Below are positions 1,137 through 23,867 of a stretch of DNA of 64,000 nucleotides, one piece after another (the stretch's first letter is position 1; every line of letters starts with the position of its first letter). The position numbers and the translations under genes are program-made. The notes below the pieces were generated by a model, which had not been told where the DNA came from, made no database searches, and was given only the letters and a program-made list of their open reading frames with translations. The stretch spans positions 4,233 to 68,232 of the forward strand of contig CAYGJA010000003.1 of the NCBI GenBank assembly GCA_964350165.1, in the 5' to 3' direction. This DNA is from an uncultured Candidatus Saccharibacteria bacterium (GTDB lineage Bacteria; Patescibacteriota; Minisyncoccia; Phycocordibacterales; UBA1006).

Positions 1137-2398
1137 AGATACTTTGCGGCTACTGCGTGTATTTGTTCCAGGGCATATTCAACATCAGCCAAGGTTGTCA
1201 TTTTTCCCAAAGAAACCCGAACACTGCCAGTGGTTAGAATAAGATTTTTTTGAGGATGATTGTTGTACATGGCCGCCAGAACATGCGAAGCGTCCTCGTC
1301 ATCAGTACTACAAGCCGCTCTGGCAGCCACATATACTCCCCGTTCAGCCAATTCGATTACCAACAGCTCACCATTGATACCCGGAATGGTGAAATTCAAA
1401 ATATGAGGAGATTGTGCCTGGAGTAAGCCTTCATGAACAATCAACTGTTTATTTATTTTTTTTAATCCTTCTAGGAAATAATTTCGCAAATCTAAAAACT
1501 GCGTGCTACACACAGGCCAATTTTCTCGAGCACGAACAAAAGCCTGGCTACCCCCAATAATTGCCGCAACGTTCTCGGTACCAGAACGGTATCCTCGCTC
1601 TTGGCCACCTCCCTCGAACAAAGCAGGCAACTTTGCTCGCCTTGTTTTATACAGAAAACCAACCCCCTTGGGACCGTATATTTTTTGGCTACTTAACGTC
1701 ATCAAATCTAGACCCGAAATAATACCTGCAAAATCAGAACAAATTGTCGCCTGCACCGCGTCACTATGCACAAAAGGAAAATGCGTCTGGTGTTGTTTCC
1801 GGTGATGACGAACCAGCTTGGCTATTTCTCGCAATGGTTGCATCACACCGGTCTCGTTGTTTACATAATGAACACTGACCAAGGCTGTGTTTTCGTGCAA
1901 TTGCTCTCGAATAAACCCCAGATCAACTATCCCAGTTTTATCGACGAGGATTTGAATCAAGTCAATCTCGCCCCTCTTGGCCATACCAAGACAAAGGTTA
2001 CGAACCGATGGATGTTCCGTGGCTGTAATCATTACTGTTGGTCTGTTTATTCCCGAATCCTTAGCAGCCATTACTGTACCAACAATAGCCATTTGATTAG
2101 CTTCGGTTGACCCTCCCGTAAAAAAAATCTCATCTGCAGTCACCCCAAGTGCTTTGGCGACTTGGGTACGAGACTGCTCGATATCATTTTTTATCGACAC
2201 TGCCGGACCATATAACGCTCCTGGGTTAAAAAAACGCTCATTTTGATAGGGTTCCATTAGAGCGACAGTGTCGAGATCAACGGGAGTTGAAGCCGCATAG
2301 TCCAAATACACTACTCGTTGGGTTTTTTGCTTGCGCTGATTGTTTCCAAATAAAAACATATTGAATTTCATTGTATAATGCGCCCAGTGAATGACCAA
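1133..2398 (-). CDS. Cysteine desulfurase (class V aminotransferase, IscS/NifS family)
   Basis: YLDYAASTPVD N-terminal motif; PLP-lysine region SSQKIYGPKGVGFLY; ...GTENVAAIIG...; 421 aa. The real start may be the internal Met MFLFGNNQ. Confidence 0.85.
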   Translation of the reverse strand: MVIHWAHYTMKFNMFLFGNNQRKQKTQRVVYLDYAASTPVDLDTVALMEPYQNERFFNPGALYGPAVSIKNDIEQSRTQVAKALGVTADEIFFTGGSTEANQMAIVGTVMAAKDSGINRPTVMITATEHPSVRNLCLGMAKRGEIDLIQILVDKTGIVDLGFIREQLHENTALVSVHYVNNETGVMQPLREIAKLVRHHRKQHQTHFPFVHSDAVQATICSDFAGIISGLDLMTLSSQKIYGPKGVGFLYKTRRAKLPALFEGGGQERGYRSGTENVAAIIGGSQAFVRARENWPVCSTQFLDLRNYFLEGLKKINKQLIVHEGLLQAQSPHILNFTIPGINGELLVIELAERGVYVAARAACSTDDEDASHVLAAMYNNHPQKNLILTTGSVRVSLGKMTTLADVEYALEQIHAVAAKYL

Positions 2399-2851
2399 CT
2401 ACTTATTGGCATACTTGTTGGCATGGGCATCATCACCCTTGTTTTACTCATTCTCGTACTACACCTTCGGCGTCGACTTGGTTTTTTTATGCGTGGACAA
2501 GACGGCAGTAGCCTCGAGGAACTCCTCCAAGACGCGCTCTACACTATTGAACGCCTCGAACAAGCCCAACTGGCCGCGCTCAAACACCAAAAAACCATGG
2601 AGAAAAAATTGCGTCAATGTATTCGAACTCCCGCTACTCTTCGCTTCAATCCTTTTCGTGATGCGGGTAGCAATCAAAGCTTTGCCACTTCTTTTATTGA
2701 CGAAACCGGTAACGGTGTTGTCTTGTCTAGCCTCTACACCCAAGGCAAAACTAGCGTCTTTGCCAAACCAGTGGCTGAGTTTGTTTCGGAGTATGATTTG
2801 ACCGAAGAAGAGTCACACGTCTTGCAACACAGTAAAAACCAGGTATTGTAG
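2378..2851 (+). CDS. DUF4446-family protein (N-terminal TM helix, coiled-coil, LRFNPFRDAG...SFA core)
   Basis: 157-aa ORF with a TM helix (LLIGILVGMGIITLVLLILVL) followed by ...TLRFNPFRDAGSNQSFATSFIDETGNGVVLSSLY..., matching the conserved core of DUF4446 proteins as I recall it. Confidence 0.5.
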   Translation: MRPVNDQLLIGILVGMGIITLVLLILVLHLRRRLGFFMRGQDGSSLEELLQDALYTIERLEQAQLAALKHQKTMEKKLRQCIRTPATLRFNPFRDAGSNQSFATSFIDETGNGVVLSSLYTQGKTSVFAKPVAEFVSEYDLTEEESHVLQHSKNQVL

Positions 2852-2855
2852 TCCT

Positions 2856-4349
2856 ATGAGTAAGAACTCCCAACAAACGCGGCCACCCGTGGTCGCCATC
2901 ATGGGCCACGTTGATCATGGAAAATCAACGCTTCTTGATTACATCAGAAAAAGCAATGTCGTCGACGGAGAAGCGGGTGGTATTACCCAACATATTGCAG
3001 CTTACGAAGTGGAGCACACGAACGCAGCTGGCGACATCAAAAAAATAACCTTTATCGACACTCCTGGTCACGCTGCTTTTACTGGTATGCGTGAATGCGG
3101 AGCCAGTGCTGCCGACATTGCCATTCTAATTGTGTCAGCCGAAGATAGCGTTAAGGCACAGACAGTCGAAGCCATCCAGACCATAAAAAACAACAAAGTC
3201 CCTTTTTTGGTGGCTATCAACAAAATAGACCGCCCCAACGCCAACGTAGAAAAAGTAAAATCAGACTTACTAGAACACAGTATCTATGTCGAAGGTTTTG
3301 GTGGCGATACTCCCTGGGTAGCTATTTCTGCCAAAACTGGCGAAGGTGTCGAGGACTTACTCGAAACCGTCTTGCTTCTTGCAGAAATGGAAGAATTTAC
3401 AGGTAATCCCGACGCAAATGCCGAGGGCTTTGTCATTGAATCTCACATGGACGCCAAACGCGGAGTATCCGCCACGCTTGTTGTAAAAAATGGCAGTCTC
3501 ACCCCGGGGCAATTTATCGTGGTGGGTGACGCCGTAGCCAAAAGCCGCCTCGTCGAAAACTTTGCTGGCAAACAAGTAAAGAACGCCACTTTTTCTTCTC
3601 CCATTACCGTAATTGGATTTGATTCACTACCAGCTGTTGGAGAAAAATTCCAAACTTATTCCAGCAAAAAAGAATCGGAATCCGCCGTAACCGATCACAA
3701 AGAAATCATTGCCGCCTTGGGTGATGCAGCCGTAGGACTATCTTGCACTGCGGTTATTCCCCTAATCCTCAAAGCCGATACCACTGGTACGCTCGAAGCG
3801 ATTCAGGGAGAGATAGCCAAACTCAATACCGCTGAATTTGGCTACAAAATCATCAAAGCTGGCATTGGGACCATCAACGAATCAGATCTTCAGATTGCAA
3901 CCTCGGACGACAGTTCCATTATTGTTGGTTTTAGCGTTGATATCGATAAAAAAGTAACGGATTCCAACGACGCTCAGAACGTAACCATCGAAACCTTTGA
4001 CATTATCTACAAACTTACCGAGTGGCTCGCCGATGAACACGAAAAAAGACGCCCGCGCAAAATGGTAGAAAAAAACACCGGTAGCGCCAAGGTTCTCAAA
4101 GTATTCAGTGTAAACAAAGACAAACAAGTCGTTGGTTGCAAAATGCAAACAGGCGAATTGTCAGTCAAAGATTCTTTTCAACTCATTCGTCGAGAAAACA
4201 CTCTTGGCCGGGGTGTTATTCATAATATCGAGCAAGCCAAAGCAAAAATAACCACCGTCAAAGATGGCGAATTCGGAATGATGGTCGAATCAAAATACGA
4301 AATAGCTCCGGGCGACACCATAACTGCCACTATTACCGAAGAAGTCTAA
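2856..4349 (+). CDS. infB: Translation initiation factor IF-2, short form (G domain plus C-terminal domains, no long N-terminal region)
   Basis: VVAIMGHVDHGKSTLLDYIRK (G1), DTPGHAAF (G3), NKID (G4), ...EAGGITQHIAAYEV; followed directly by rbfA, the conserved infB-rbfA order. Only 497 aa. Confidence 0.9.
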   Translation: MSKNSQQTRPPVVAIMGHVDHGKSTLLDYIRKSNVVDGEAGGITQHIAAYEVEHTNAAGDIKKITFIDTPGHAAFTGMRECGASAADIAILIVSAEDSVKAQTVEAIQTIKNNKVPFLVAINKIDRPNANVEKVKSDLLEHSIYVEGFGGDTPWVAISAKTGEGVEDLLETVLLLAEMEEFTGNPDANAEGFVIESHMDAKRGVSATLVVKNGSLTPGQFIVVGDAVAKSRLVENFAGKQVKNATFSSPITVIGFDSLPAVGEKFQTYSSKKESESAVTDHKEIIAALGDAAVGLSCTAVIPLILKADTTGTLEAIQGEIAKLNTAEFGYKIIKAGIGTINESDLQIATSDDSSIIVGFSVDIDKKVTDSNDAQNVTIETFDIIYKLTEWLADEHEKRRPRKMVEKNTGSAKVLKVFSVNKDKQVVGCKMQTGELSVKDSFQLIRRENTLGRGVIHNIEQAKAKITTVKDGEFGMMVESKYEIAPGDTITATITEEV

Positions 4350-4354
4350 ATACT

Positions 4355-4708
4355 ATGCACACACCACAGCCGCGCTCCAATAGACAACTTCGCGTCAATC
4401 AATCTTTGCAAATGATTGTAAGTGATTTTTTGAACCAAAATTCTAACCGCCTATCCCTCATTACAGTGACCCGCTGCGATGTTGCCCCCAACCTGAGCAG
4501 CGCCGTTGCTTATATTAGTGTTATTCCCGACGACAAAGAAGCCCAGGCTATCGAATTTCTCAAGCGTCGCCAATACGACCTCCATCAATTCGTCAAAGAA
4601 AAAAGCGAGCTTCGTCGAGCCCCCCGAGTCAGATTTGAAATAGACAAGGGCGAAAAAAACAGACAGCTCATTGATCAGCTGTCCCGCACCATCGAAGAGG
4701 AGGAGTAG
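4355..4708 (+). CDS. rbfA: Ribosome-binding factor A
   Basis: 117 aa; LRVNQSLQMIVSDFL...LITVTRCDVAPNLSSAVAYISV...APRVRFEID matches the RbfA pattern; positioned immediately after infB. Confidence 0.8.
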   Translation: MHTPQPRSNRQLRVNQSLQMIVSDFLNQNSNRLSLITVTRCDVAPNLSSAVAYISVIPDDKEAQAIEFLKRRQYDLHQFVKEKSELRRAPRVRFEIDKGEKNRQLIDQLSRTIEEEE

Positions 4709-4748
4709 TTCCAAAACAGGGGGCGTTTATGGTACGATGCCTCAAGCT

Positions 4749-4820
4749 GGCGTGGTGGTGAAGTGGTAACACTACGGTCTGCAAAACCGTCATGCGCGGG
4801 TTCGATTCCCGCCCACGCCT
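4749..4820 (+). tRNA. tRNA-Cys (anticodon GCA), 72 nt, no encoded CCA
   Basis: Acceptor GGCGTGG/CCACGCC; anticodon stem ACGGT/ACCGT with loop CTGCAAA (U33, GCA, A37); T arm GCGGG-TTCGATT-CCCGC; discriminator T. Confidence 0.85.
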
Positions 4821-4822
4821 CA

Positions 4823-5011
4823 TATGACATTAGGTCGAGGGACAGTAGTCCTTCGGCCTTTTGTTATACATGGTGTTGCGGGAATCGAAAGACGGAGGCC
4901 GCGAAGCCGCCCGCAGGGCGTGGCCGAGTCAGGGTCGTGAGCGTATATTTTCTTAACTGCGTAGCAGTTTTTGAAAATAACGACTCCTGACCGATTCCCG
5001 CCCACGCCTCA
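4823..5011 (+). repeat. tRNA-3'-associated element copy 1: ~169 nt GC-rich insert beginning (T)ATGACATTAGGTC, followed by a 20-nt direct repeat (4992-5011) of the tRNA-Cys 3' end (4803-4822)
   Basis: CGATTCCCGCCCACGCCTCA occurs at 4803-4822 (T-loop to 3' end plus CA) and again at 4992-5011. The intervening sequence is homologous to the insert after tRNA-Leu(TAG) at 6885-7064, sharing ATGACATTAGGTC, GGCCTTTTGT and GCGGGAAT.G.A.GA.GGCCGC blocks. Confidence 0.7.
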
Positions 5012-5214: not shown

Positions 5215-6645
5215 ATGAAAAAAACAACCATCTACTACGATGCAGACTGTCCAACCTGCACTGTTTATATGAATTCTAGCCAAGTCACAGGACTAGAATG
5301 GCAACCTAATACAAACTCGGATTCAAAAAATAAAGACAAAGAAATCTTGGCCACCACTGCGGATGGCGAGACCGTCGGTAATATCGAGGTTCTGGCCCTC
5401 ATAGAATCAGCCAAAGGCAACACTCGGCGAGCGACCTTGCTTCGCAATCCCTGGCTACAACCAGTGCTCAGAATAGGCTACCGCCTGGTGGCTCATTATC
5501 GCAAATACCTAACCGGGCCACAGTCGACCTTTTTTTGGATCAAGACTCTGATTGGCATTGGCCTCCTGGGGGCCTCAGTTGCCTCCTGGCGACTCTGGAC
5601 CAGCTGGCATGACTTTCCGGCCGCTCCACTCCTAGGAAGGGCGGGAGAATGGCTCTTTGAATACGGTTCACCAGTGCTCGGACTCGTCTATCTGACTGCT
5701 CTTTTGGGGCTTATTTTCACCAAAAAGAAAACGAGCTTTTTTGTACTTATACTTTTGGGAGTCAGTGCACTGCTGGTAATCGGAGACCTCAATCGCCTGC
5801 GTCCCTGGTTATATGAATTCCTGTTGCTGCTCAGTGCTCTCCTACTGTTCGACACAAAGAAACCGAACGTTATCCCCGCCTCATTCCTGGTTATTCTGGC
5901 CGGGACCTATTTCTGGGGTGGTGTACACAAATTAAATAGCTATTTTGTTCACGAAATCTTTCCTTGGTTTATCTCCCCCATCACCGGCGGAAATCTTGGA
6001 GCAACTCCAGAAACAGCCCTGGCCCTTTTTGTTGTGGCGGTAGAGGTAAGCATAGGGGCTCTTTTGTTAAACAAAAAAACCAGACTTTTTGCGGCTATCC
6101 TTGCCACTCCTACTCATCTTTTTATTGTTACTGTACTTCCTATTGGGCACCACTGGGGATATGTTATTTTCTTTTGGAACTTGGCCCTGCTGGGGATTGT
6201 CTGGCTGAGCACCAAAACAACTTTTGTGCGCGGTCATTCGATTGCCCTGGCGTTAGCAGTCATCCTAGCTTGGTTACTACCGGTCGGGAATTTATTTGGG
6301 ATTTGGGATAATTATCTATCCAGCGCACTCTATGCCCACGAAACCGATCATGGATACATTGTTGTTTCGAATGCCTCACTAGCAGGACTTCCTGAGGGTG
6401 CACAGACGGCTGTTATTACTTGGCCCCACGAACCCAACACCATCGCCATCAGTACGCTCATGTGGTCTTACGATAATTACAATACCGCGCTTTATACCAA
6501 CCCCAGGGTCTACACCGCCGCCCTCTCGGCTGTCTGCCAGATAGATAACACGGCCAAATTATATCTACGGGCACAGACTCGTTTGTTCCGAGAAAAACCA
6601 GGACAAATTGTCACCTGTGACATATTGCAAAAGCGGAGACGTTAG
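5215..6645 (+). CDS. DCC-family thiol-disulfide oxidoreductase (DUF393) fused to a large polytopic membrane domain (HTTM-like, tentative)
   Basis: N-terminus MKKTTIYYDADCPTCTVYMNSS carries the YDGDCPLC-type DUF393/DCC motif; the rest is 10+ predicted TM helices. The track ORF start at 5053 overlaps tRNA-Leu(TAA); ATG at 5215 is in frame and preferred. Confidence 0.55.
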   Translation: MKKTTIYYDADCPTCTVYMNSSQVTGLEWQPNTNSDSKNKDKEILATTADGETVGNIEVLALIESAKGNTRRATLLRNPWLQPVLRIGYRLVAHYRKYLTGPQSTFFWIKTLIGIGLLGASVASWRLWTSWHDFPAAPLLGRAGEWLFEYGSPVLGLVYLTALLGLIFTKKKTSFFVLILLGVSALLVIGDLNRLRPWLYEFLLLLSALLLFDTKKPNVIPASFLVILAGTYFWGGVHKLNSYFVHEIFPWFISPITGGNLGATPETALALFVVAVEVSIGALLLNKKTRLFAAILATPTHLFIVTVLPIGHHWGYVIFFWNLALLGIVWLSTKTTFVRGHSIALALAVILAWLLPVGNLFGIWDNYLSSALYAHETDHGYIVVSNASLAGLPEGAQTAVITWPHEPNTIAISTLMWSYDNYNTALYTNPRVYTAALSAVCQIDNTAKLYLRAQTRLFREKPGQIVTCDILQKRRR

Positions 6646-6663
6646 GATAAACTCGGAACACAT

Positions 6664-6736
6664 CCGCTCGTAGCTCAGTTGGTAGAGCAGCTGGCTCTTA
6701 ACCAGACGGTCGTAGGTTCGAATCCTACCGGGCGGA
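6664..6736 (+). tRNA. tRNA-Lys (anticodon CTT), 73 nt
   Basis: Acceptor CCGCTCG/CGGGCGG (one G.U); D arm GCTC-AGTTGGTA-GAGC; anticodon loop CTCTTAA gives CUU; T arm GTAGG-TTCGAAT-CCTAC; discriminator A. Confidence 0.8.
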
Positions 6737-6799
6737 CACGTCCGCCCGGAGCCAACCAAGCACCGAGCGGAAGTAGTCAATTTTTTGACAATAAAAGAT

Positions 6800-6884
6800 G
6801 CCGGAGTGGTGGAATTGGTAGACACGCTTGCCTTAGGAGCATGTGGGGTAACCCGTGCTGGTTCGAGTCCAGTCTCCGGCACCA
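6800..6884 (+). tRNA. tRNA-Leu (anticodon TAG), type II, 82 nt plus genomically encoded CCA (6882-6884)
   Basis: GCCGGAG-TG-GTGG-AATTGGTAGA-CAC...; anticodon stem CTTGC/GCATG with loop CTTAGGA gives UAG, G37; variable arm TGGGGTAACCCGTG; T arm CTGG-TTCGAGT-CCAG; acceptor 3' TCTCCGGC-A-CCA. Confidence 0.85.
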
Positions 6885-7085
6885 ATGACATTAGGTCTTG
6901 TTCTTTAGAACAGGGCCTTTTGTCATTTTGGCGGGAATGGACGAGAAGGCCGCAGCGGGGCCCCAAGGCGAGACCGAACAGGTCGACCATTGGGGAGCGA
7001 GGCGCGGGCCCGCAGTCCGAGAAATAATGACCGCAGGGAAATATATTTCTCGAGAACATGTGGGCGAGTCCAGTCTCCGGCACCA
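6885..7085 (+). repeat. tRNA-3'-associated element copy 2: ~180 nt GC-rich insert beginning ATGACATTAGGTC directly after the CCA of tRNA-Leu(TAG), followed by a 21-nt direct repeat (7065-7085) of the tRNA 3' end (6864-6884)
   Basis: CGAGTCCAGTCTCCGGCACCA is present at 6864-6884 (T-loop to CCA) and again at 7065-7085. Insert is homologous to copy 1 at 4823-4991. Confidence 0.7.
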
Positions 7086-7118
7086 AAACAAAAACCCTCA
7101 TTTGAGGGTTTTTGTTTT
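7086..7118. terminator. Bidirectional intrinsic terminator (AAAACCCTCA-tt-TGAGGGTTTT flanked by A and T runs)
   Basis: aaaacaaaaaccctcatttgagggtttttgtttt lies between the tRNA/element unit (+) and the 3' end of the minus-strand gene ending at 7142. Confidence 0.7.
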
Positions 7119-7141
7119 GGTTGTTTTATTTATTTCTGGTT

Positions 7142-8494
7142 TTAGGAAGGAAGATTATCTAAGAAATCTTTTTTCTTTTTCTCCAGTTCATCCTCCTCGG
7201 ATTCTCCCCAAGGGTCCTCGGAATCAAAATCATCTCCCTCGTCACCCTCCACCTCCTGACCAATCTGAGGCTCAATATCGTCGATGGACTGCGGAGCGCT
7301 CTCAATAGCTGACTTGGTCATATTATCCAGGTCGGTGTCATTTGGACTCAGCTCTCGGCTGATAACGTCTTGGAGTTCTTTCTCGGCCTGTTCTTGTTCT
7401 TTTTGTTCTTTGTATCGCAAGTAGATTCGTCGTCCAACCAAAACAATAACCAGCAGCAATATCACAATCACCAACCAACCCAAGAACGTCCGTGGCAAGA
7501 ATCCGCCACTTGTGGCACCGGCAGCTGGGCGACCATCACTATCGTATTCGTTGATATCATAATGCACCGCACTAGCTTGGGAGCCAGTGGTTGGATTGGT
7601 ATAGAAAACAATAGCCGCTGCCGCCACTCTAGTTCCCTCTCGCAGGGCCGTTACGACGCGGACGTTTACTTTGACATCGCCGTCTTCGTCTTCTTCTAGG
7701 TCGCCAAGGTCAAACACAGCTGCGTGTTCTTTGCGCAAATACACCCCTTCACCGGCTGATAGGAATTCGGTGTTATCAGGCAGTTCTACTTTAATAAAAA
7801 CGTCATCGATTTGAGTATTAGAAACATTTTGATAATTGATTTCGTAGGTCAAGATATCTCCGACGGTAAAAGTCTCGCGATCATCGGTGATATCAAGCGC
7901 AATATGAGCCGGAACTGGGGGCTCGGCTACTTGGTTATTGGTTTCATTATTAGTTTCGTTATTGGTCGTATTGTTGGTAGTATTATTGGTTTCGTTGTTG
8001 GTGGTATTACTGCCGTTATTGTTTGGAGTCCCGCCTTGATTTACATTTCCATTTGGTTGTTCAATAACCGTAATGTTGGTACCACCATTGTATCCAGCCT
8101 GTTGACCAGGAACCGGCAAGGTAATAAAGCTGATCGTAGGCCCGTACACGATACCGTTACGGTTCTGCCCTACGACGCGCGCGTAGTAATTGGTGTTTGG
8201 TAGCAGGTTGTTCACTTCGACAGAGATATTGTCCGAAAATCGAGAATGACTACGCGATACGGTTGATTGCCCAAAAGAAGTAGTCTGCCCATATTGGAAA
8301 AAAGTCTGTGGTCGGTCCGCCCGATCTCCACCTACGTTGACAGCATAACTACCGTTCAATACAGCGGAAGTTTGAGTAACATTAGAAGCACCACCCGTCA
8401 GCACGGTCAAGTTGGTTGACTGGGCCGAGGCCGGAACTGCCGAAAATATAAAAATGCTAAATAATGATAGCGAAAATGCGAGTATTTTTTTCAT
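7142..8494 (-). CDS. Cell-surface protein: signal peptide, FN3-like domain, Asn/Thr low-complexity linker, DUF11-like repeat domain, C-terminal TM anchor with acidic tail
   Basis: Signal peptide MKKILAFSLSLFSIFIFSAVPASA; ...TSAVLNGSYAVNVGG...YARVVGQNRNGIVYGPTISFIT (FN3-like); TTNNETNNTTNNTTNNETNNETNN tract; TFTVGDILTYEINYQNVSNTQIDDVFIKVELPDNTEFL (DUF11-like); TM GWLVIVILLLVIVLVG followed by an E/D-rich tail. Confidence 0.55.
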   Translation of the reverse strand: MKKILAFSLSLFSIFIFSAVPASAQSTNLTVLTGGASNVTQTSAVLNGSYAVNVGGDRADRPQTFFQYGQTTSFGQSTVSRSHSRFSDNISVEVNNLLPNTNYYARVVGQNRNGIVYGPTISFITLPVPGQQAGYNGGTNITVIEQPNGNVNQGGTPNNNGSNTTNNETNNTTNNTTNNETNNETNNQVAEPPVPAHIALDITDDRETFTVGDILTYEINYQNVSNTQIDDVFIKVELPDNTEFLSAGEGVYLRKEHAAVFDLGDLEEDEDGDVKVNVRVVTALREGTRVAAAAIVFYTNPTTGSQASAVHYDINEYDSDGRPAAGATSGGFLPRTFLGWLVIVILLLVIVLVGRRIYLRYKEQKEQEQAEKELQDVISRELSPNDTDLDNMTKSAIESAPQSIDDIEPQIGQEVEGDEGDDFDSEDPWGESEEDELEKKKKDFLDNLPS

Positions 8495-10696: not shown

Positions 10697-11137
10697 CTAT
10701 AGGGCGATTCTTTCTCCAGTACCACCAGTACCAATACCGACAGTGGAAGAAACAAACGCGATGATACCCCAAAGTCCAGTAACCACAAGCATCGCGATGA
10801 TGCCTCCAATCATGGCCCCTCGGGCAGCCTCTTTGTCTTCTGGTCCCTTTGCCAAGGCAAAGCGAACTACGTTGTATAGGAAGTAAGCTAGCGCTACACC
10901 AGAAAGAATGGTGAAGATACTGTTTACCCATACGTTTATGTTGGTCAGGTTGTCCCGAACAGCGGTGTCATCGACGATAGGAACGTTAGCTTCGAGTGGG
11001 TCGATCTGGAATCCAGCTTGACCTCCCGGAGTAACCGCCTGTGCCATTGCATCTTGTGCAATCAATGACCATGCCATTACAGAAACACCAGCACCAGCAA
11101 TCAGGTTGCTAAGTTTTGATTTGATGTTTTTTTTCAT
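10697..11137 (-). CDS. Secreted small two-TM-helix protein, VirB2/TrbC-pilin-like (paralog 2)
   Basis: Signal peptide MKKNIKSKLSNLIAGAGVSVMAWSLIAQDAMA; ...LAYFLYNVVRFALAKGPEDKEAARGAMIGGIIAMLVVTGLWGIIAFVSSTVGIGTGG. Confidence 0.5.
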   Translation of the reverse strand: MKKNIKSKLSNLIAGAGVSVMAWSLIAQDAMAQAVTPGGQAGFQIDPLEANVPIVDDTAVRDNLTNINVWVNSIFTILSGVALAYFLYNVVRFALAKGPEDKEAARGAMIGGIIAMLVVTGLWGIIAFVSSTVGIGTGGTGERIAL

Positions 11138-11224
11138 AAATTTGATATTTGTGCGTTGAACACGAAGTTCAATATAAAAACTAATAATGCACTGATGTAA
11201 GTATACAATGCGTCACCCCCACGT

Positions 11225-11611
11225 CTAGTCCTGGATATAGATACCCGGTGGATTAGCCGTTCCTCCTAATCCAATTCCAAACGTAGACGAGATAAATCCA
11301 ACGATGCCCCACAGGCCAACTAGCACAAACATACCAATTATGCCCCAGACCAACCAGCGCTTGGCTTCTTCTCTTTTGTTCTGATCTCCTTGGGCACTAA
11401 TCAATCGGATAAGCCCCCACATGAACGTTGCCAGGGCTGCTCCGGACAATAGGGCGATTACGGATGTTCCGATAATCTCGGCAAAACTATCAATGATTCC
11501 CTTGAGGGTGCTGGTGTCGGCGCTGGCCACACCAGGCACGGCCAACAAGAACGCTACCACCCAAATATACCGTGACCATGATTGTATTTTTGTTTGCATA
11601 ATTTTTTTCAT
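11225..11611 (-). CDS. Secreted small two-TM-helix protein, VirB2/TrbC-pilin-like (paralog 3)
   Basis: Signal peptide MKKIMQTKIQSWSRYIWVVAFLLAVPGVASA; ...LATFMWGLIRLISAQGDQNKREEAKRWLVWGIIGMFVLVGLWGIVGFISSTFGIGLGG. Clearly paralogous to 10697-11137. Confidence 0.5.
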   Translation of the reverse strand: MKKIMQTKIQSWSRYIWVVAFLLAVPGVASADTSTLKGIIDSFAEIIGTSVIALLSGAALATFMWGLIRLISAQGDQNKREEAKRWLVWGIIGMFVLVGLWGIVGFISSTFGIGLGGTANPPGIYIQD

Positions 11612-11626
11612 CTAAATTAATATACC

Positions 11627-12457
11627 CTACACTCCGCGCAATTGGTCAACGGTACCCTGGATAGCTTCGGCAATCACCCAAGCTCCCAACAGTATGGCCC
11701 CACCAATCACCGCTGCCAACAAGGCTTTCTTGCCGTTCTTTATCTTTTCCTGATTACCACCAGCCGTGACCAACAAGAAGCCCGCATAGATAATCGCCAG
11801 AGCAACCAACGGAATACCAATTACGAATACGATAGTAATCAGTTGACGAATAACGGCAGGTATCGAATCATAAGCAATTGGGTTTTCCAGTAAATCAAAA
11901 GAAAGAGGATCGTCGGCCGACGACGGCGCGGCTGGTTCTGCCCAATTAGCAGGACTGGGGGACCCCCACTGTGCACTTTTGTCACAAGACGTATCGCAAA
12001 AATACCCTAGCTGATTACTAAGATTGACATTGCTCAAACCGGTATTAAGCGCAAGGACTCCATCCACAAAAACCTTTACAGAAACCTTACAAGCAGGAGA
12101 ATTGCTTCCGTTACATTTATCGTCTCCCAAAGTAAAAGCATGTGTGATTACGGTATTAAAAGTTCCCCCGGCAGGGGCCTGAGTAGTCAAGGACCCAATC
12201 TCACCATTACGATTCCAAGCCTCCACTCGGACTACGTTGCCCGTACAATTGTTAGCGTTTACGGTAATGGTGGCGTTTGGTGGATTAATATCCAAATACC
12301 AACCAGTAGCTTGTGAACCATTGGGGCTAATGGTTGCAGAAGAAATCGAACAATTAGGCTGTGCCCAGGCTTCAGCTGTTCCCATGGCAACAGTACCAAT
12401 CACCACCAAAGCAATCCCTATAACGGCAACACCTATTTTTTTAAAAAAAGTCATCAT
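11627..12457 (-). CDS. Secreted protein: Cys-containing ~100-aa ectodomain fused to a C-terminal pilin-like two-helix module (paralog 4)
   Basis: Signal peptide MMTFFKKIGVAVIGIALVVIGTVAMGTAEAWA; ectodomain ...NCTGNVVRVEAWNRNGEIGSLTT...CNGSNSPACKVSVKVFV; C-terminal ...IPLVALAIIYAGFLLVTAGGNQEKIKNGKKALLAAVIGGAILLGAWVIAEAI. Confidence 0.5.
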   Translation of the reverse strand: MMTFFKKIGVAVIGIALVVIGTVAMGTAEAWAQPNCSISSATISPNGSQATGWYLDINPPNATITVNANNCTGNVVRVEAWNRNGEIGSLTTQAPAGGTFNTVITHAFTLGDDKCNGSNSPACKVSVKVFVDGVLALNTGLSNVNLSNQLGYFCDTSCDKSAQWGSPSPANWAEPAAPSSADDPLSFDLLENPIAYDSIPAVIRQLITIVFVIGIPLVALAIIYAGFLLVTAGGNQEKIKNGKKALLAAVIGGAILLGAWVIAEAIQGTVDQLRGV

Positions 12458-14574
12458 AGATCTGGAATATTTAGTAGTGAATAAGCCCCATCAGCACCCA
12501 AGAACCTCAATACTGTTGCCACAAGCAACCAAGCGATAACAACAATAATTAATCCTGTGAAGAATTTTCCAAAAGCACCTTTTGCTTGTTGCAAACGACT
12601 TGGATTCCCCCCACTGGTTAGTATCATTATACCAGTAATGACAGACATCAAACCAGCCAAAGGAATCACCATGAGGAAAATAAAATTAATAATATTAGAA
12701 ATTAATTCTACAAAATAATTATAATTACAGTCGTTTTGACAAGGAACAAGTGGTTTTGTTTGACTATCGTCAGGAACAATTCCAATCTCTCTGAATTCTT
12801 CGAATTCTGCTTCCATCTGCACATCGTCATTCAATTGGATAATGATACCGTTCCCCCTTCCCACTATTTCCATAAGGCTGGTGGTGGCGTTGAATTGTCG
12901 CCAAGCGGCCAAACGCCAACCAGTATTCGGCGTGGCCACAACCTCGATCAAAGACCCTACGGGATACGTCCCCGCCCCGGCAACCGTACCTCCACCAGCG
13001 GGAGTGACGTTAACAGACAGTGTCTTGCTTGTATTAGCGGCAAAATTAGCAATCAATTCCCTGTTCCCCAACATAGTCGCAATTGCTCGCTTGGACGTAA
13101 GTGTGGCGCCATTTTCTAACTCCCAATTCAAGAACTGGTATCCAGTATTTGGAAAGGCGTCGATGTTTACGTCGGAATTAATCGGATAGGTCCCCTCTCC
13201 CTGCACGCGACCGCCAGAAGAATCCACATTACCGTCAGTTTTGATGGTGATTTTTAGGGAATATTCTTTGGCTAATGGATTGGCAGACCAGCGACCAACA
13301 GAAGAAGGCATGTCACAAGCCCCAAAACAATGAAAACCAATTGCATTCATGCTCGTAGTACGGAGCCCCGCTCCACGGCTACTATGCAGAATCCCCAGAG
13401 AGTTAACCGGGGAGACGTCTTCTATTTCTATAAAAAACTGACAAGCTGGAAAAAGACCCAAATCACACCCACCATCCCCCAGGTTGGCTGTCGTAGATAG
13501 CTCCATAATATCCAACGATTGATTGTAGGGATTGCTGGTTAGATCAAAACCAAATAGAGCATCATTAAAATCCAACTCTTGGCTGGAAACAGCAATCGCT
13601 CCCGGCAAAGTAGTCTTGAGACCAATGGTTACTTTTAGTTTTTTGCCATAACAATTCGTTGCAAGCCATTTTATCTCGACCGGCAAGGTTCCTCCATCAT
13701 AGGAAAATAAAAGATTTCCTTGGGGGTCAAAATTAACCGGCCCAATTGTACAATCAGATTGTGTTTGGATATTTCCACCCGAGCTATCAGAAGATGGCAG
13801 ATAGGGCGATATCCCCGAAGCAAAGACAGCCGTCAGAGTGCGATCACTATTGGTAAGCTTGACCTTGATTCGAGGATTAGTCGAAACCCTAACGCCACCT
13901 TCGGTCCATTCCAAAAGATAATTTCCCGGATCGGGTAATGCCTGCACATTGACCTCGGTATCGATAGGGAACGTTCCACCACCAATCGCCCGACCGTCGC
14001 CTTGCGCATTCAGAGCAAGTGTATACGAGGACTGAAACGCCTGGGTGGTAATGGGATTGATGGTGGTAGTGGGAGGAGAGTTACCAGTACCCCTATTGAA
14101 TCCAATAACGTCCTTGCTTGTGGAATACAGGGGAGTGGCTTGGCTTGAAAAAATCTCCACCGATGGCCCATCAGAAAAAGTAAGATAATACTGACATTGA
14201 GGAGACGATCCATCATCCCTACAACCTTCCTCACCAATATTAATAGTGGCATTTTGAAGTTTGACGATGGCATTGGTTGGACCAGTGCCAACAGAAATAG
14301 TTCTGTCTGCAACAATCACATTCCCGAGGGAGGTTCTCCCCCATACGCGCAAATACACCGTTGACCCCTGACAATTGCTCAGGGTGGCATCAAGAGCCAC
14401 TGATCGATTAGTGCGAGTATACCAGGCAGACTGATTACCGGCTGGATCAAGCTTTACCTCAGACACCACACAAGTGTTTTGAGCAAAAGCATCATCGCCA
14501 ACAAAAGTTAGCCCGACAAAAAAACCAATAATTCCGACCAAGGCTATTATTTTTTTGATTACTTGTTTTTTCAT
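12454..14574 (-). CDS. Large secreted protein: two copies of the same Cys-containing ectodomain, three List-Bact/InlB-B-type repeats, C-terminal pilin-like two-helix module (paralog 5)
   Basis: Signal peptide MKKQVIKKIIALVGIIGFFVGLTFVGDDAFA; domain copies ...SNCQGSTVYLRVWGRTSLGNVIV...CRDDGSSPQCQYYLTF and ...ATNCYGKKLKVTIGLKT...CDLGLFPACQFFIEI; repeats GGGTFPIDTEVNVQALPDPGNYLLEWT, GEGTYPINSDVNIDAFPNTGYQFLNWE, GAGTYPVGSLIEVVATPNTGWRLAAWR; C-terminal ...MVIPLAGLMSVITGIMILTSGGNPSRLQQAKGAFGKFFTGLIIVVIAWLLV. Confidence 0.5.
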   Translation of the reverse strand: MKKQVIKKIIALVGIIGFFVGLTFVGDDAFAQNTCVVSEVKLDPAGNQSAWYTRTNRSVALDATLSNCQGSTVYLRVWGRTSLGNVIVADRTISVGTGPTNAIVKLQNATINIGEEGCRDDGSSPQCQYYLTFSDGPSVEIFSSQATPLYSTSKDVIGFNRGTGNSPPTTTINPITTQAFQSSYTLALNAQGDGRAIGGGTFPIDTEVNVQALPDPGNYLLEWTEGGVRVSTNPRIKVKLTNSDRTLTAVFASGISPYLPSSDSSGGNIQTQSDCTIGPVNFDPQGNLLFSYDGGTLPVEIKWLATNCYGKKLKVTIGLKTTLPGAIAVSSQELDFNDALFGFDLTSNPYNQSLDIMELSTTANLGDGGCDLGLFPACQFFIEIEDVSPVNSLGILHSSRGAGLRTTSMNAIGFHCFGACDMPSSVGRWSANPLAKEYSLKITIKTDGNVDSSGGRVQGEGTYPINSDVNIDAFPNTGYQFLNWELENGATLTSKRAIATMLGNRELIANFAANTSKTLSVNVTPAGGGTVAGAGTYPVGSLIEVVATPNTGWRLAAWRQFNATTSLMEIVGRGNGIIIQLNDDVQMEAEFEEFREIGIVPDDSQTKPLVPCQNDCNYNYFVELISNIINFIFLMVIPLAGLMSVITGIMILTSGGNPSRLQQAKGAFGKFFTGLIIVVIAWLLVATVLRFLGADGAYSLLNIPDL

Positions 14575-21965: not shown

Positions 21966-22187
21966 TTCTATGGGTCGAATTCAACATCACCTGATCACAT
22001 CCTTTGTTCGCCTTCTTACCATACACCATGTATGCACTTGTACACTATGCACACATGGATTTTTGCTTTTTTAACGATAAAAGCATCGGGCTGACGTTTC
22101 GCGTCATAACAGCCATCACGCTATTGCAACAGTGCAATAATCGACCGATTCGGCCTCAGTGAGCAAGCTCATCTGGGCTTTATATCG

Positions 22188-23637
<1,450 letters not shown>

Positions 23638-23867
23638 ACTGGAAGATGAACCATAAATGGTTCATCGTATAGTAAGAAGACGAACAAAAAATGTCATTCG
23701 CCAACTTAATCAAAATTAAACTGGATTGTTTAGACTCTCTCCGGCGAGAGAGTCTGTGATGCTGAATTGTCAAAGTCCTTCGCGACCCATTCGTATGGGG
23801 CAATTCAAAAGAAAAGACCCACTGCAATCAGTCGTGTGGCCAGTATATAGAGTTACAGAAATGTGTC

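Follow-up and report, generated by a model that had tools for sequence, protein, structure and literature searches.

A folded, non-coding insert behind a tRNA-Leu gene and its relatives at tRNA and tmRNA 3' ends in uncultivated small-genome bacteria

What separates the tRNA-Leu(TAG) gene of an uncultured Candidatus Saccharibacteria bacterium from its terminator? In the stretch of DNA analysed here (the window; 64,000 nt of contig CAYGJA010000003.1, assembly GCA_964350165.1), the genomically encoded CCA of this gene (6882-6884, as placed by ARAGORN and Rfam) is followed by a 180 nt insert (6885-7064), and then by a second copy of the end of the tRNA itself. The duplicated 21-mer, CGAGTCCAGTCTCCGGCACCA, comprises the T-loop C at position 56, the 3' strands of the T and acceptor stems, the discriminator and the CCA (tRNA positions 56-76); it occurs exactly twice in the window, once within the functional tRNA (the left copy, L) and once beyond the insert (the right copy, R), and the identity extends one base further, to 7086, giving 22 nt in total. 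An exact repeat of 21-22 nt inside 200 nt is far beyond chance. The displaced terminator of the tRNA, a perfect hairpin of 18 bp and a T-run, comes next (Table 1). The encoded CCA, the insert of around 180 nt, the exact repeat and the perfect hairpin had all been described in an original prediction made from the sequence alone, and all four were confirmed. Identical sequence is present at this locus in assemblies from two other samples (L001 and L002; loci from other assemblies are given as L numbers). The insert proves to be a diverged or decaying member of a widespread family of folded elements found at the 3' ends of tRNA and transfer-messenger RNA (tmRNA) genes in uncultivated small-genome bacteria, and we file it as a variant of the site-specific non-autonomous insertion elements.

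Relatives of the locus were found via its neighbouring genes, and all keep the order tRNA-Lys, tRNA-Leu(TAG), convergent gene for a 450 aa surface protein. The site is filled in the window and in L006; it is empty in three other relatives (L014, L016 and L017), whose tRNA runs straight into a terminator built like the one displaced in the window, as is seen in L014. The 180 nt are hence an insertion. The flanking DNA of L006 is ~80% identical to that of the window, whilst the tRNA-Lys gene, the spacer, the tRNA-Leu gene, the hairpin and the following 19 nt are 97-100% identical; the insert itself has lost its centre there, ~125 nt being deleted together with the first bases of R (alignment gap ~6946-7071). 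The core of the element is therefore dispensable, as nearly all of it is missing in this relative. A second element lies behind tRNA-Cys(GCA) in the window, and this site is empty in L006 and L010; a third site, behind tRNA-Leu(TAA), is filled in L017 and L011 and empty in the window. Over these three tRNAs, then, a single small clade has both gained and lost copies. The earlier proposal that the Leu and Cys inserts result from two independent insertions of related elements is thereby supported, with the refinement that their ages differ, the Leu copy being common to the window and L006 and the Cys copy being absent from both L006 and L010.

Comparison of the two window copies with that of L017 resolves the insert into four parts: a hairpin (HP1), an inner strand (I), a branched core and R. 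The folds of both window inserts outdid those of shuffled controls, with z scores of -8.5 and -13.7. HP1 forms the left end of the insert, and insertion is exactly after the C(C)A of the tRNA, which is left intact with HP1 as its new terminator. In the Leu copy, HP1 has a GC stem (6893-6918) followed by TTTGTCATTT, an arrangement like that of an intrinsic terminator, and it scored as such in both window copies. The 13-mer directly after tRNA-Leu, ATGACATTAGGTC, has just two exact occurrences in the window, at 4824 and 6885; this shared start and a second block picked out earlier, GGCCTTTTGT, are the two flanks of the one terminator-like hairpin, the same in the Leu and Cys copies around an apical stem that differs by compensatory changes. 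The tRNA-Cys gene occupies 4749-4821, and its 20-mer CGATTCCCGCCCACGCCTCA is the sequence repeated around the sister element. The repeat starts lie at TTCGA... in the Cys locus and TTCGAG... in the Leu locus, which bears out the suggestion that both duplications begin at the same T-loop C, position 56 in each case.

The strand I is antisense to R, with which it forms a helix of up to 17 bp that, as modelled, rebuilds the acceptor stem stacked on the T stem and continues over T-loop positions 56-60. In the Cys copy GGUGUU-GCGGG-AAUCG (I) lies opposite CGAUU-CCCGC-CCACGCC (R), and in the Leu(TAA) copy of L017 GCUGGGA-GCGGG-AAUCG (I) lies opposite CGAUU-CCCGC-UCCCGGC (R). The helix of the Leu(TAG) copy is shorter and imperfect, pairing UGGAC with GUCCA and GCGGGA with UCUCCGGC; its I keeps GCGGGAAU, which is typical of copies at tRNAs with the T-arm CGAUUCCCGC, and thus resembles the complement of a T-arm foreign to its own host. 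Elsewhere I follows the host tRNA even into the T-loop, with AAUCG opposite CGAUU and ACUUG opposite CAAGU. Hence, of the blocks common to the otherwise strongly diverged Cys and Leu inserts (GGCCTTTTGT, GCGGGAAT.GA and GGCCGC), all are present in both, as the original prediction described, but GCGGGAAT is a host-derived complement of the tRNA T-arm that varies with the host, not a fixed motif. In L011, R departs from the tRNA by two G-to-A changes that are compensated in I, which indicates that the pairing itself is under selection. The last core bases of the Cys element, CGACTCCTGAC, likewise resemble a T-loop and T-stem, so the second arm of the core repeats the design of the outer helix; they may be the trace of an earlier host. 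A search with GTGAGCG N25-55 CGACTCCTGAC returned 20 matches, all of them chance or ordinary tRNA T-arms, in keeping with the T-arm-like nature of this sequence.

An exact 23-base core pattern, AATCGAAAGNCGNAGGCCGCGAAGC, common to the window Cys copy and the L017 copy, served as a probe for further members of the family. It matched 22 metagenome loci, many from groundwater-type samples, and in all of these the order L-HP1-I-core-R is kept. Hosts are tRNA-Gly (TCC, GCC and CCC), Gln, Met(CAT), His, Arg (GCG and TCG), Cys, Leu(TAA) and Leu(TAG), as well as tmRNA and a tRNA-Asp with a 224 nt intron; the start of the duplication is nearly constant, at T-loop position 56-58, and its length is 19-22 nt. 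A covariance model built from 17 copies gave 34 matches in the sequences searched, at many different tRNAs. Scored with this model, the Leu(TAG) copy reaches 13.2 bits (E = 0.0035 in a 4 kb search), its alignment extending exactly from I to the end of R, which against the 121.7 bits of the Cys copy marks it as a diverged or decaying member.

The predicted structure is supported by covariation. Double, compensatory changes were found at 14 of 25 pairs in the 17 copies and at 18 of 25 in a set of 26, in which six of the eight modelled pairs of the I-R helix covary; across these 26 copies 95.6% of cells are paired, compared with 74% in shuffles and 27-47% in slid controls, the alignment having been fitted to the covariance model, which favours pairing somewhat. 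The fold is also specific to one strand, the tRNA-sense strand giving a better fold than its complement in 19 of 20 copies. The conserved core reads AAAG.CGGAGGCCGCGAAGCC ... GGCCGAG.C.GGG. Both further copies (22 loci) and a conserved structure (18 of 25 pairs covarying), which the original prediction had set as its check, were thus found. Full-text literature searches found no description of such elements. The window hairpin pattern, GACATTAGGTC N8-30 GGCCTTTTG, yielded only three chance matches in a scan of a genome collection, with neither a tRNA nor a hairpin, and is a poor probe because the HP1 flanks are lineage-specific. In scans of viral contigs the hairpin pattern and the first core block had no matches and the second core block two chance matches in GC-rich coding DNA, and none of 2.9 million viral contigs contained the core pattern.

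The two HP1 hairpins of L017 share their flanks, as do the two window copies with their widely differing cores, and from the sequences this would fit the reading of HP1 at the junction by a lineage-specific trans-acting factor. Copies are stacked in tandem or nested arrays in L046, L059, L047 and at the tRNA-Cys of L017, with the better-preserved unit adjoining the tRNA; judged from three loci, the unit next to the tRNA appears to be the newest. Other, unrelated cores are found with the same flanks, namely type B, at the tRNA-Cys of L017, and type C, with GGUACUGACCCUGUAAGGGUCGA.

Two further ideas about the origin of these parts were considered and rejected. That I is copied afresh from the target at each insertion does not agree with the odd bases (GCUG...) shared by Cys, Leu(TAA) and Met copies of the same subfamily, with the deletion shared by the apparently orthologous Gly(TCC) copies of L040 and L047, or with the foreign I kept by the Leu(TAG) copy. 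An origin of HP1 from tRNA-primed cDNA was discarded because the reverse complement of the stretch 5' of I does not match what follows the tRNA.

Several variants of the architecture were encountered in the course of these comparisons. A second core type, AATCGAAGAGC...GAAAAGG(G/T)GTACTGA(A/C)CCTGTAAGG(G/T)TCGA, has the same hairpin, antisense and repeat flanks in L041, L047, L053 and L057, and is often stacked behind the first (e.g. L041 oriented upstream of 1114; L053 3743-3830). The type B insert of L017 (10815-11000, minus strand) is a third, unrelated sequence of ~165 nt behind tRNA-Cys, ending in the repeat GATTCCCGCTCACGCCTCA, after which there is a solitary HP1 of the type seen in the window, then a promoter-like site, then a 183 aa open reading frame (ORF) without a Pfam match. 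A 24 nt palindromic hairpin, GCAAGCAAACTGCTTTGCTTGC, is inserted in the I of older (second) units in L047 and L059, and another small hairpin interrupts the right repeat in L044; these may represent a still smaller hairpin element. The tRNA-Asp(GTC) of L056 (2662-3634) combines its 224 nt anticodon-loop intron (ARAGORN -i) with a cassette at its 3' end, and a free-standing LAGLIDADG-type gene lies immediately upstream, overlapping the start of the tRNA. In L049, L061, L051 and L055 a complete tRNA is missing upstream, the expected left repeat being reduced to its last 6-8 nt, and these copies are preceded by conserved non-tRNA sequence (e.g. CTCAAACACAGTTCTAACATCCTCTACGAC) downstream of protein genes.

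The hairpins of the Leu locus are themselves variable. Between the window and L006 two loops are flipped exactly on unchanged stems: that of HP1 (CTTTAG at window 6903-6908, CTAAAG at L006 6700-6705) and that of the terminator (CATTTG at window 7099-7104, CAAATG at about 6779-6784 in L006). These inversions indicate that template switching at hairpins occurs at this locus. At the empty site of L016 (~5330-5400, minus strand) the tRNA-Leu terminator is a 27 bp hairpin with a 5' arm that begins inside the tRNA (CCCCGGCACCA...) and a 3' arm that ends with the complement (TGGTGCCGGGG); hence terminators pairing with the acceptor 3' strand exist without the element.

The insert has no gene and no conserved ORF. 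Mechanically called ORFs run over tRNA-Lys, tRNA-Leu and the insert (6565-7101 on the minus strand; 6785-7027 and 6898-7308 on the plus strand), and the first of these, of 178 aa, appears as a hypothetical protein in public gene calls (L001 4351-4887); it has no Pfam match and is very likely spurious. Nor was a partner protein evident. Pfam searches of the window found no integrase, transposase, HUH nuclease, Cas1 or reverse transcriptase, so that a tyrosine or serine integrase gene is present neither in the 180 nt insert nor, by Pfam, elsewhere in the 64 kb; intI, Y1 transposases and RAYT proteins were likewise absent from the window. The cognate tyrosine integrase and crossover region put forward in the original prediction thus found no support within the window. 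An all-against-all BLAST of the ORFs around ~25 copies recovered only syntenic housekeeping genes and no recurring protein, and the candidates considered, a LAGLIDADG protein, the CCA-adding enzyme, an exonuclease and UPF0102, were not consistently linked to the copies.

Searches against Rfam 15 gave no family at E <= 1 for the insert; between 4000 and 8000 only tRNAs reach the threshold, the other matches being chance-level microRNA and leader models on terminator hairpins, and 13 further loci likewise had no match for the element. A group I intron was dismissed, there being no Rfam match and the tRNA being uninterrupted, with the insert after the CCA; an anticodon-loop tRNA intron, at position 35/36, has been reported as typical of Patescibacteria (PMC13011429). 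A retron RNA was also rejected, for although a pairing like that of a1/a2 is present (I-R), there is no adjacent reverse transcriptase, and neither the tmRNA nor the Y RNA model matched. A DDE-type miniature inverted-repeat transposable element was set aside because its ends would be inverted repeats, which ATGACATT... and ...ACATGTGGG or ...CTCCTGAC do not form, and because the duplication is 19-22 nt. A retroelement that is target-primed or like a short interspersed element was likewise discounted: the duplication is present, but a tail is lacking and the window encodes no reverse transcriptase.

Among known systems the nearest are integron cassettes, tRNA-integrating islands that have lost their integrase, and hairpin elements of the IS200/REP type. 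A defining feature of each was not seen: for the first, a GTTRRRY site or intI; for the second, an integrase; for the third, a short guide and, within the 64 kb window, a Y1 enzyme. With integron attC sites and CTX-phage attP(+) the element shares a linear order, from core site through cargo, inverse core site and structured spacer to a further core site; as in attC, a hairpin forms on one specific strand by pairing of the inverse with the direct site, and compensatory change maintains this pairing. Integron cassettes, too, are units without a recombinase that form arrays, the newest apparently next to the fixed site, as we infer for the element from three loci. However, the 'core site' here is 17-21 nt of the tRNA or tmRNA 3' end, changing with the host gene, rather than GTTRRRY; the junctions fall after ...N73-C(C)A and the repeats are tRNA sequence; the only cargo is a terminator-like hairpin; the spacer is a branched core conserved in sequence; and no IntI or attI platform is known.

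Islands and prophages at tRNA and tmRNA genes, together with cis-mobilizable elements (CIMEs) and satellite tycheposons, use the same targets with an identity block from the T-loop to the 3' end, rebuild the tRNA with a new downstream sequence, accrete in tandem, and leave filled and empty sites among relatives. In contrast to these, the element is 10-100 times smaller and free of genes, no integrase was found, and it has an internal antisense copy of the att segment and a strand-specific fold. IS200/IS605 miniatures, REP and REPIN are likewise non-coding, hairpin-rich and strand-specific, with a terminator-like location after genes; they are moved in trans by a single copy of their enzyme and excised precisely, and mobility in trans would be expected of the element as well. 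In elements of the IS200/IS605 type the target is chosen by base pairing of an internal guide with the cleavage sites; this guide is 4-5 nt long, compared with pairing of up to 17 nt here. Unlike them, the element carries a 20 nt copy of its target, and no Y1 transposase or RAYT was identified. Cas1-mediated integration of casposons and CRISPR spacers offers a parallel in that casposons integrate at tRNA 3' ends and a long segment beside a fixed 'leader' is duplicated; casposons, however, are of kilobase scale, with terminal inverted repeats and a 14-15 bp duplication, whereas the element lacks terminal inverted repeats and, in the window, Cas1. Mimics of the tRNA top half (the tRNA-like domain of tmRNA, viral tRNA-like structures and YrlA) have a similar helix of acceptor and T stems ending in the discriminator and C(C)A, and the retroviral primer-binding site is likewise an internal stretch complementary to the last ~17 nt of a tRNA. 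The element differs from the mimics in having five additional base pairs and a junction in place of the T-loop, without an Rfam match, and from both in lying in cis behind the cognate tRNA, no reverse transcriptase partner being known.

We tentatively regard the Leu insert, with slightly less than even confidence, as an old, partly decayed copy of a small (~170-250 bp) non-coding, non-autonomous insertion cassette specific to tRNA and tmRNA 3' ends and moved in trans. The unit HP1-I-core-R would leave and enter as an excised circle or strand, probably single-stranded, in which the I-R helix would act as a double-stranded stand-in for the end of the target tRNA gene. A strand-transferase (a recombinase or nuclease) encoded elsewhere in the genome would then exchange strands with the tRNA gene, by analogy with integron attC x attI, CTX-phage attP(+) x dif, or the ends of IS200/IS605. 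Recombination of a circle R-HP1-I-core with tRNA positions 56-76 would give L-HP1-I-core-R directly, with the tRNA intact and HP1 as its terminator, after which local gene conversion or template switching may keep L, R and I alike. Among 70 predicted hairpin loops, 19 are C-GNA-G triloops and four are GNRA; C-GNA-G triloops (cf. d(GCGAAGC)) are unusually stable in DNA, and their excess hints at a single-stranded DNA stage or a DNA fold.

Several points weigh against this reading. The search for an enzyme covered the window, where no recombinase, HUH nuclease or reverse transcriptase is present, and ten ORFs from other loci, and it named none; no excised or circular form was observed. In the Leu copy R equals the host exactly and I matches it poorly, so an R carried by the element would require later gene conversion. 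The fold could equally be that of an RNA read through HP1, since G-U pairs are conserved. Finally, the sequence conservation of the core exceeds that of integron attC sites, part of it being an ascertainment effect of the search pattern. A bolder version, that the cassettes form a new mobile-element class in Patescibacteria apart from insertion sequences, integrons, introns and retroelements, we consider unlikely. The end of the tRNA or tmRNA gene would then be a universal landing pad, equivalent to attI, to which the element presents its own copy as a folded minihelix. The unit ends coincide with tRNA 3'-processing sites, hence an RNase Z-type excision from the transcript could be possible; the unit so cut might be sealed into a viroid-sized circle of ~190 nt, or else be excised as single-stranded DNA, and either form could re-enter another tRNA gene.

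Alternatively, the repeat could be a long target-site duplication of positions 56-76 made by transposition or retrotransposition, one strand being nicked in the T-loop DNA (55/56) and the other after the end of the tRNA, with HP1-I-core joined or copied in between; in target-primed reverse transcription, for instance, the nicked bottom strand would anneal to a tRNA fragment at the 3' end of the transcript and gap repair would duplicate 56-76. This would account for the near-constant start of the duplication at position 56-58 and for the identity that R shows in young copies to the tRNA of any host (over 20-22 nt in the window; likewise in L059, L055, L017 and L046), including the Leu(TAG) copy, in which I is of another type, and the layout of R, HP1, an antisense strand like a primer-binding site, body and R recalls in general terms the retroviral R-U5-PBS...R. 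It is nonetheless improbable, as the window has no reverse transcriptase or transposase, terminal inverted repeats and an A-rich tail are both lacking, a stagger of 20 nt is unusual for DNA transposases, and group II introns are reported to be absent from Patescibacteria (PMC13011429). Furthermore, it gives I no role and leaves the co-variation of I and R away from the tRNA in L011 unexplained.

That same compensation in a resident copy would be expected were the insert a host-useful RNA, a structured extension of the tRNA 3' trailer that is co-transcribed and has spread by duplication and gene conversion. Its I-R helix would mimic the acceptor/T minihelix and so be processed by RNase P, RNase Z and the CCA-adding enzyme; the RNA might assist the maturation or quality control of tRNA, act as a decoy against toxins that target the acceptor end, or provide a spare 3' fragment. 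The sense-strand-specific fold with its conserved G-U pairs, the invariable tRNA orientation between tRNA and terminator, and the ~100% conservation of HP1 and I between the window and L006, where flanking genes are 80% identical, all agree with such a role. However, the elements are patchily distributed among close relatives and among the tRNAs of one genome, L006 has lost the core without losing the tRNA locus, and a terminator-like HP1 would stop most transcripts ahead of the core; selfish insertions typically show what is seen here, copies in tandem, nested or decayed and several unrelated cores between the same flanks, and the spread to unrelated tRNAs and tmRNA is unexplained, making this explanation similarly doubtful. 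Much less probable still are decayed scars of large integrative elements (prophages or islands), in which an internal deletion has joined attL to attR and spared nothing but the arm regions. Although a direct repeat of the 3' part of a tRNA from the T-loop is the classic signature of an integrase at tRNA and tmRNA genes, and tmRNA is also a host here, independent deletions would not yield the same 170-250 nt architecture and covarying helices in more than 25 copies from many genomes; no integrase remnants were seen, and the viral contigs searched lack the core pattern.

If the insertion-cassette reading is correct, non-coding cassettes that have so far gone unannotated are numerous in very small genomes poor in classical transposons; their landing site, the tRNA T-arm and acceptor end, is the most conserved sequence in the cell and is used without damage to the tRNA. 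They would also provide a natural case of target recognition through a folded copy of the target, which could perhaps be developed to assay retargetable insertion or recombination on single-stranded substrates. Such cassettes would account for spurious 'hypothetical proteins' across tRNA loci in metagenomes of this kind, and probably for some contig breaks. The new covariance model can be used for annotating such genomes.

Table 1. Features of the tRNA-Leu(TAG) locus and of the sister element in the window
Feature	Position	Strand	Evidence or remark
tRNA-Leu(TAG), intact host gene	6800-6884	+	ARAGORN; Rfam tRNA, 53.9 bits
L, left 21 nt repeat copy, within the functional tRNA	6864-6884	+	exact match to 7065-7085
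HP1 of Leu copy, hairpin ATGACAUUAGGUC-stem/loop-GGCCUUUUGUCAU	6885-6926	+	fold; terminator scoring; comparison with Cys copy
I of Leu copy, inner antisense strand GGCGGGAAUGGAC	6930-6942	+	fold; model alignment; other copies
Core of Leu copy, GC-rich, branched, diverged from family core	6943-7064	+	model alignment; gap in L006
R, right copy of tRNA 3' segment	7065-7085	+	21 nt exact
Displaced tRNA-Leu terminator, 18 bp perfect hairpin then T-run	7082-7121	+	terminator scoring; empty-site comparison
Sister element behind tRNA-Cys(GCA)	4803-5011	+	covariance model, 121.7 bits; strong family member
L of Cys element	4803-4822	+	
HP1 of Cys element	4824-4867	+	
I of Cys element (GGUGUUGCGGGAAUCG)	4872-4887	+	
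Core of Cys element	4888-4991	+	
R of Cys element	4992-5011	+	

In L006, the closest relative, the place of the Cys element between tRNA-Cys and tRNA-Leu(TAA) is taken by an 825 aa ORF (2302-4779) without a Pfam match. Elsewhere, the window encodes a short IF-2 and a 16S rRNA gene (22187-23644, minus strand) with no adjoining 23S gene in the window, the rRNA genes thus being unlinked. With the pilin-like gene cluster described next and the intron-bearing tRNA-Asp of a related locus, these features suggest that the host is probably Patescibacteria-like. Four genes on the minus strand (10697-14574) have type IV secretion system (T4SS)-pilin-like domains, one of them with InlB B-repeat domains in addition, and this cluster is also found in L017.

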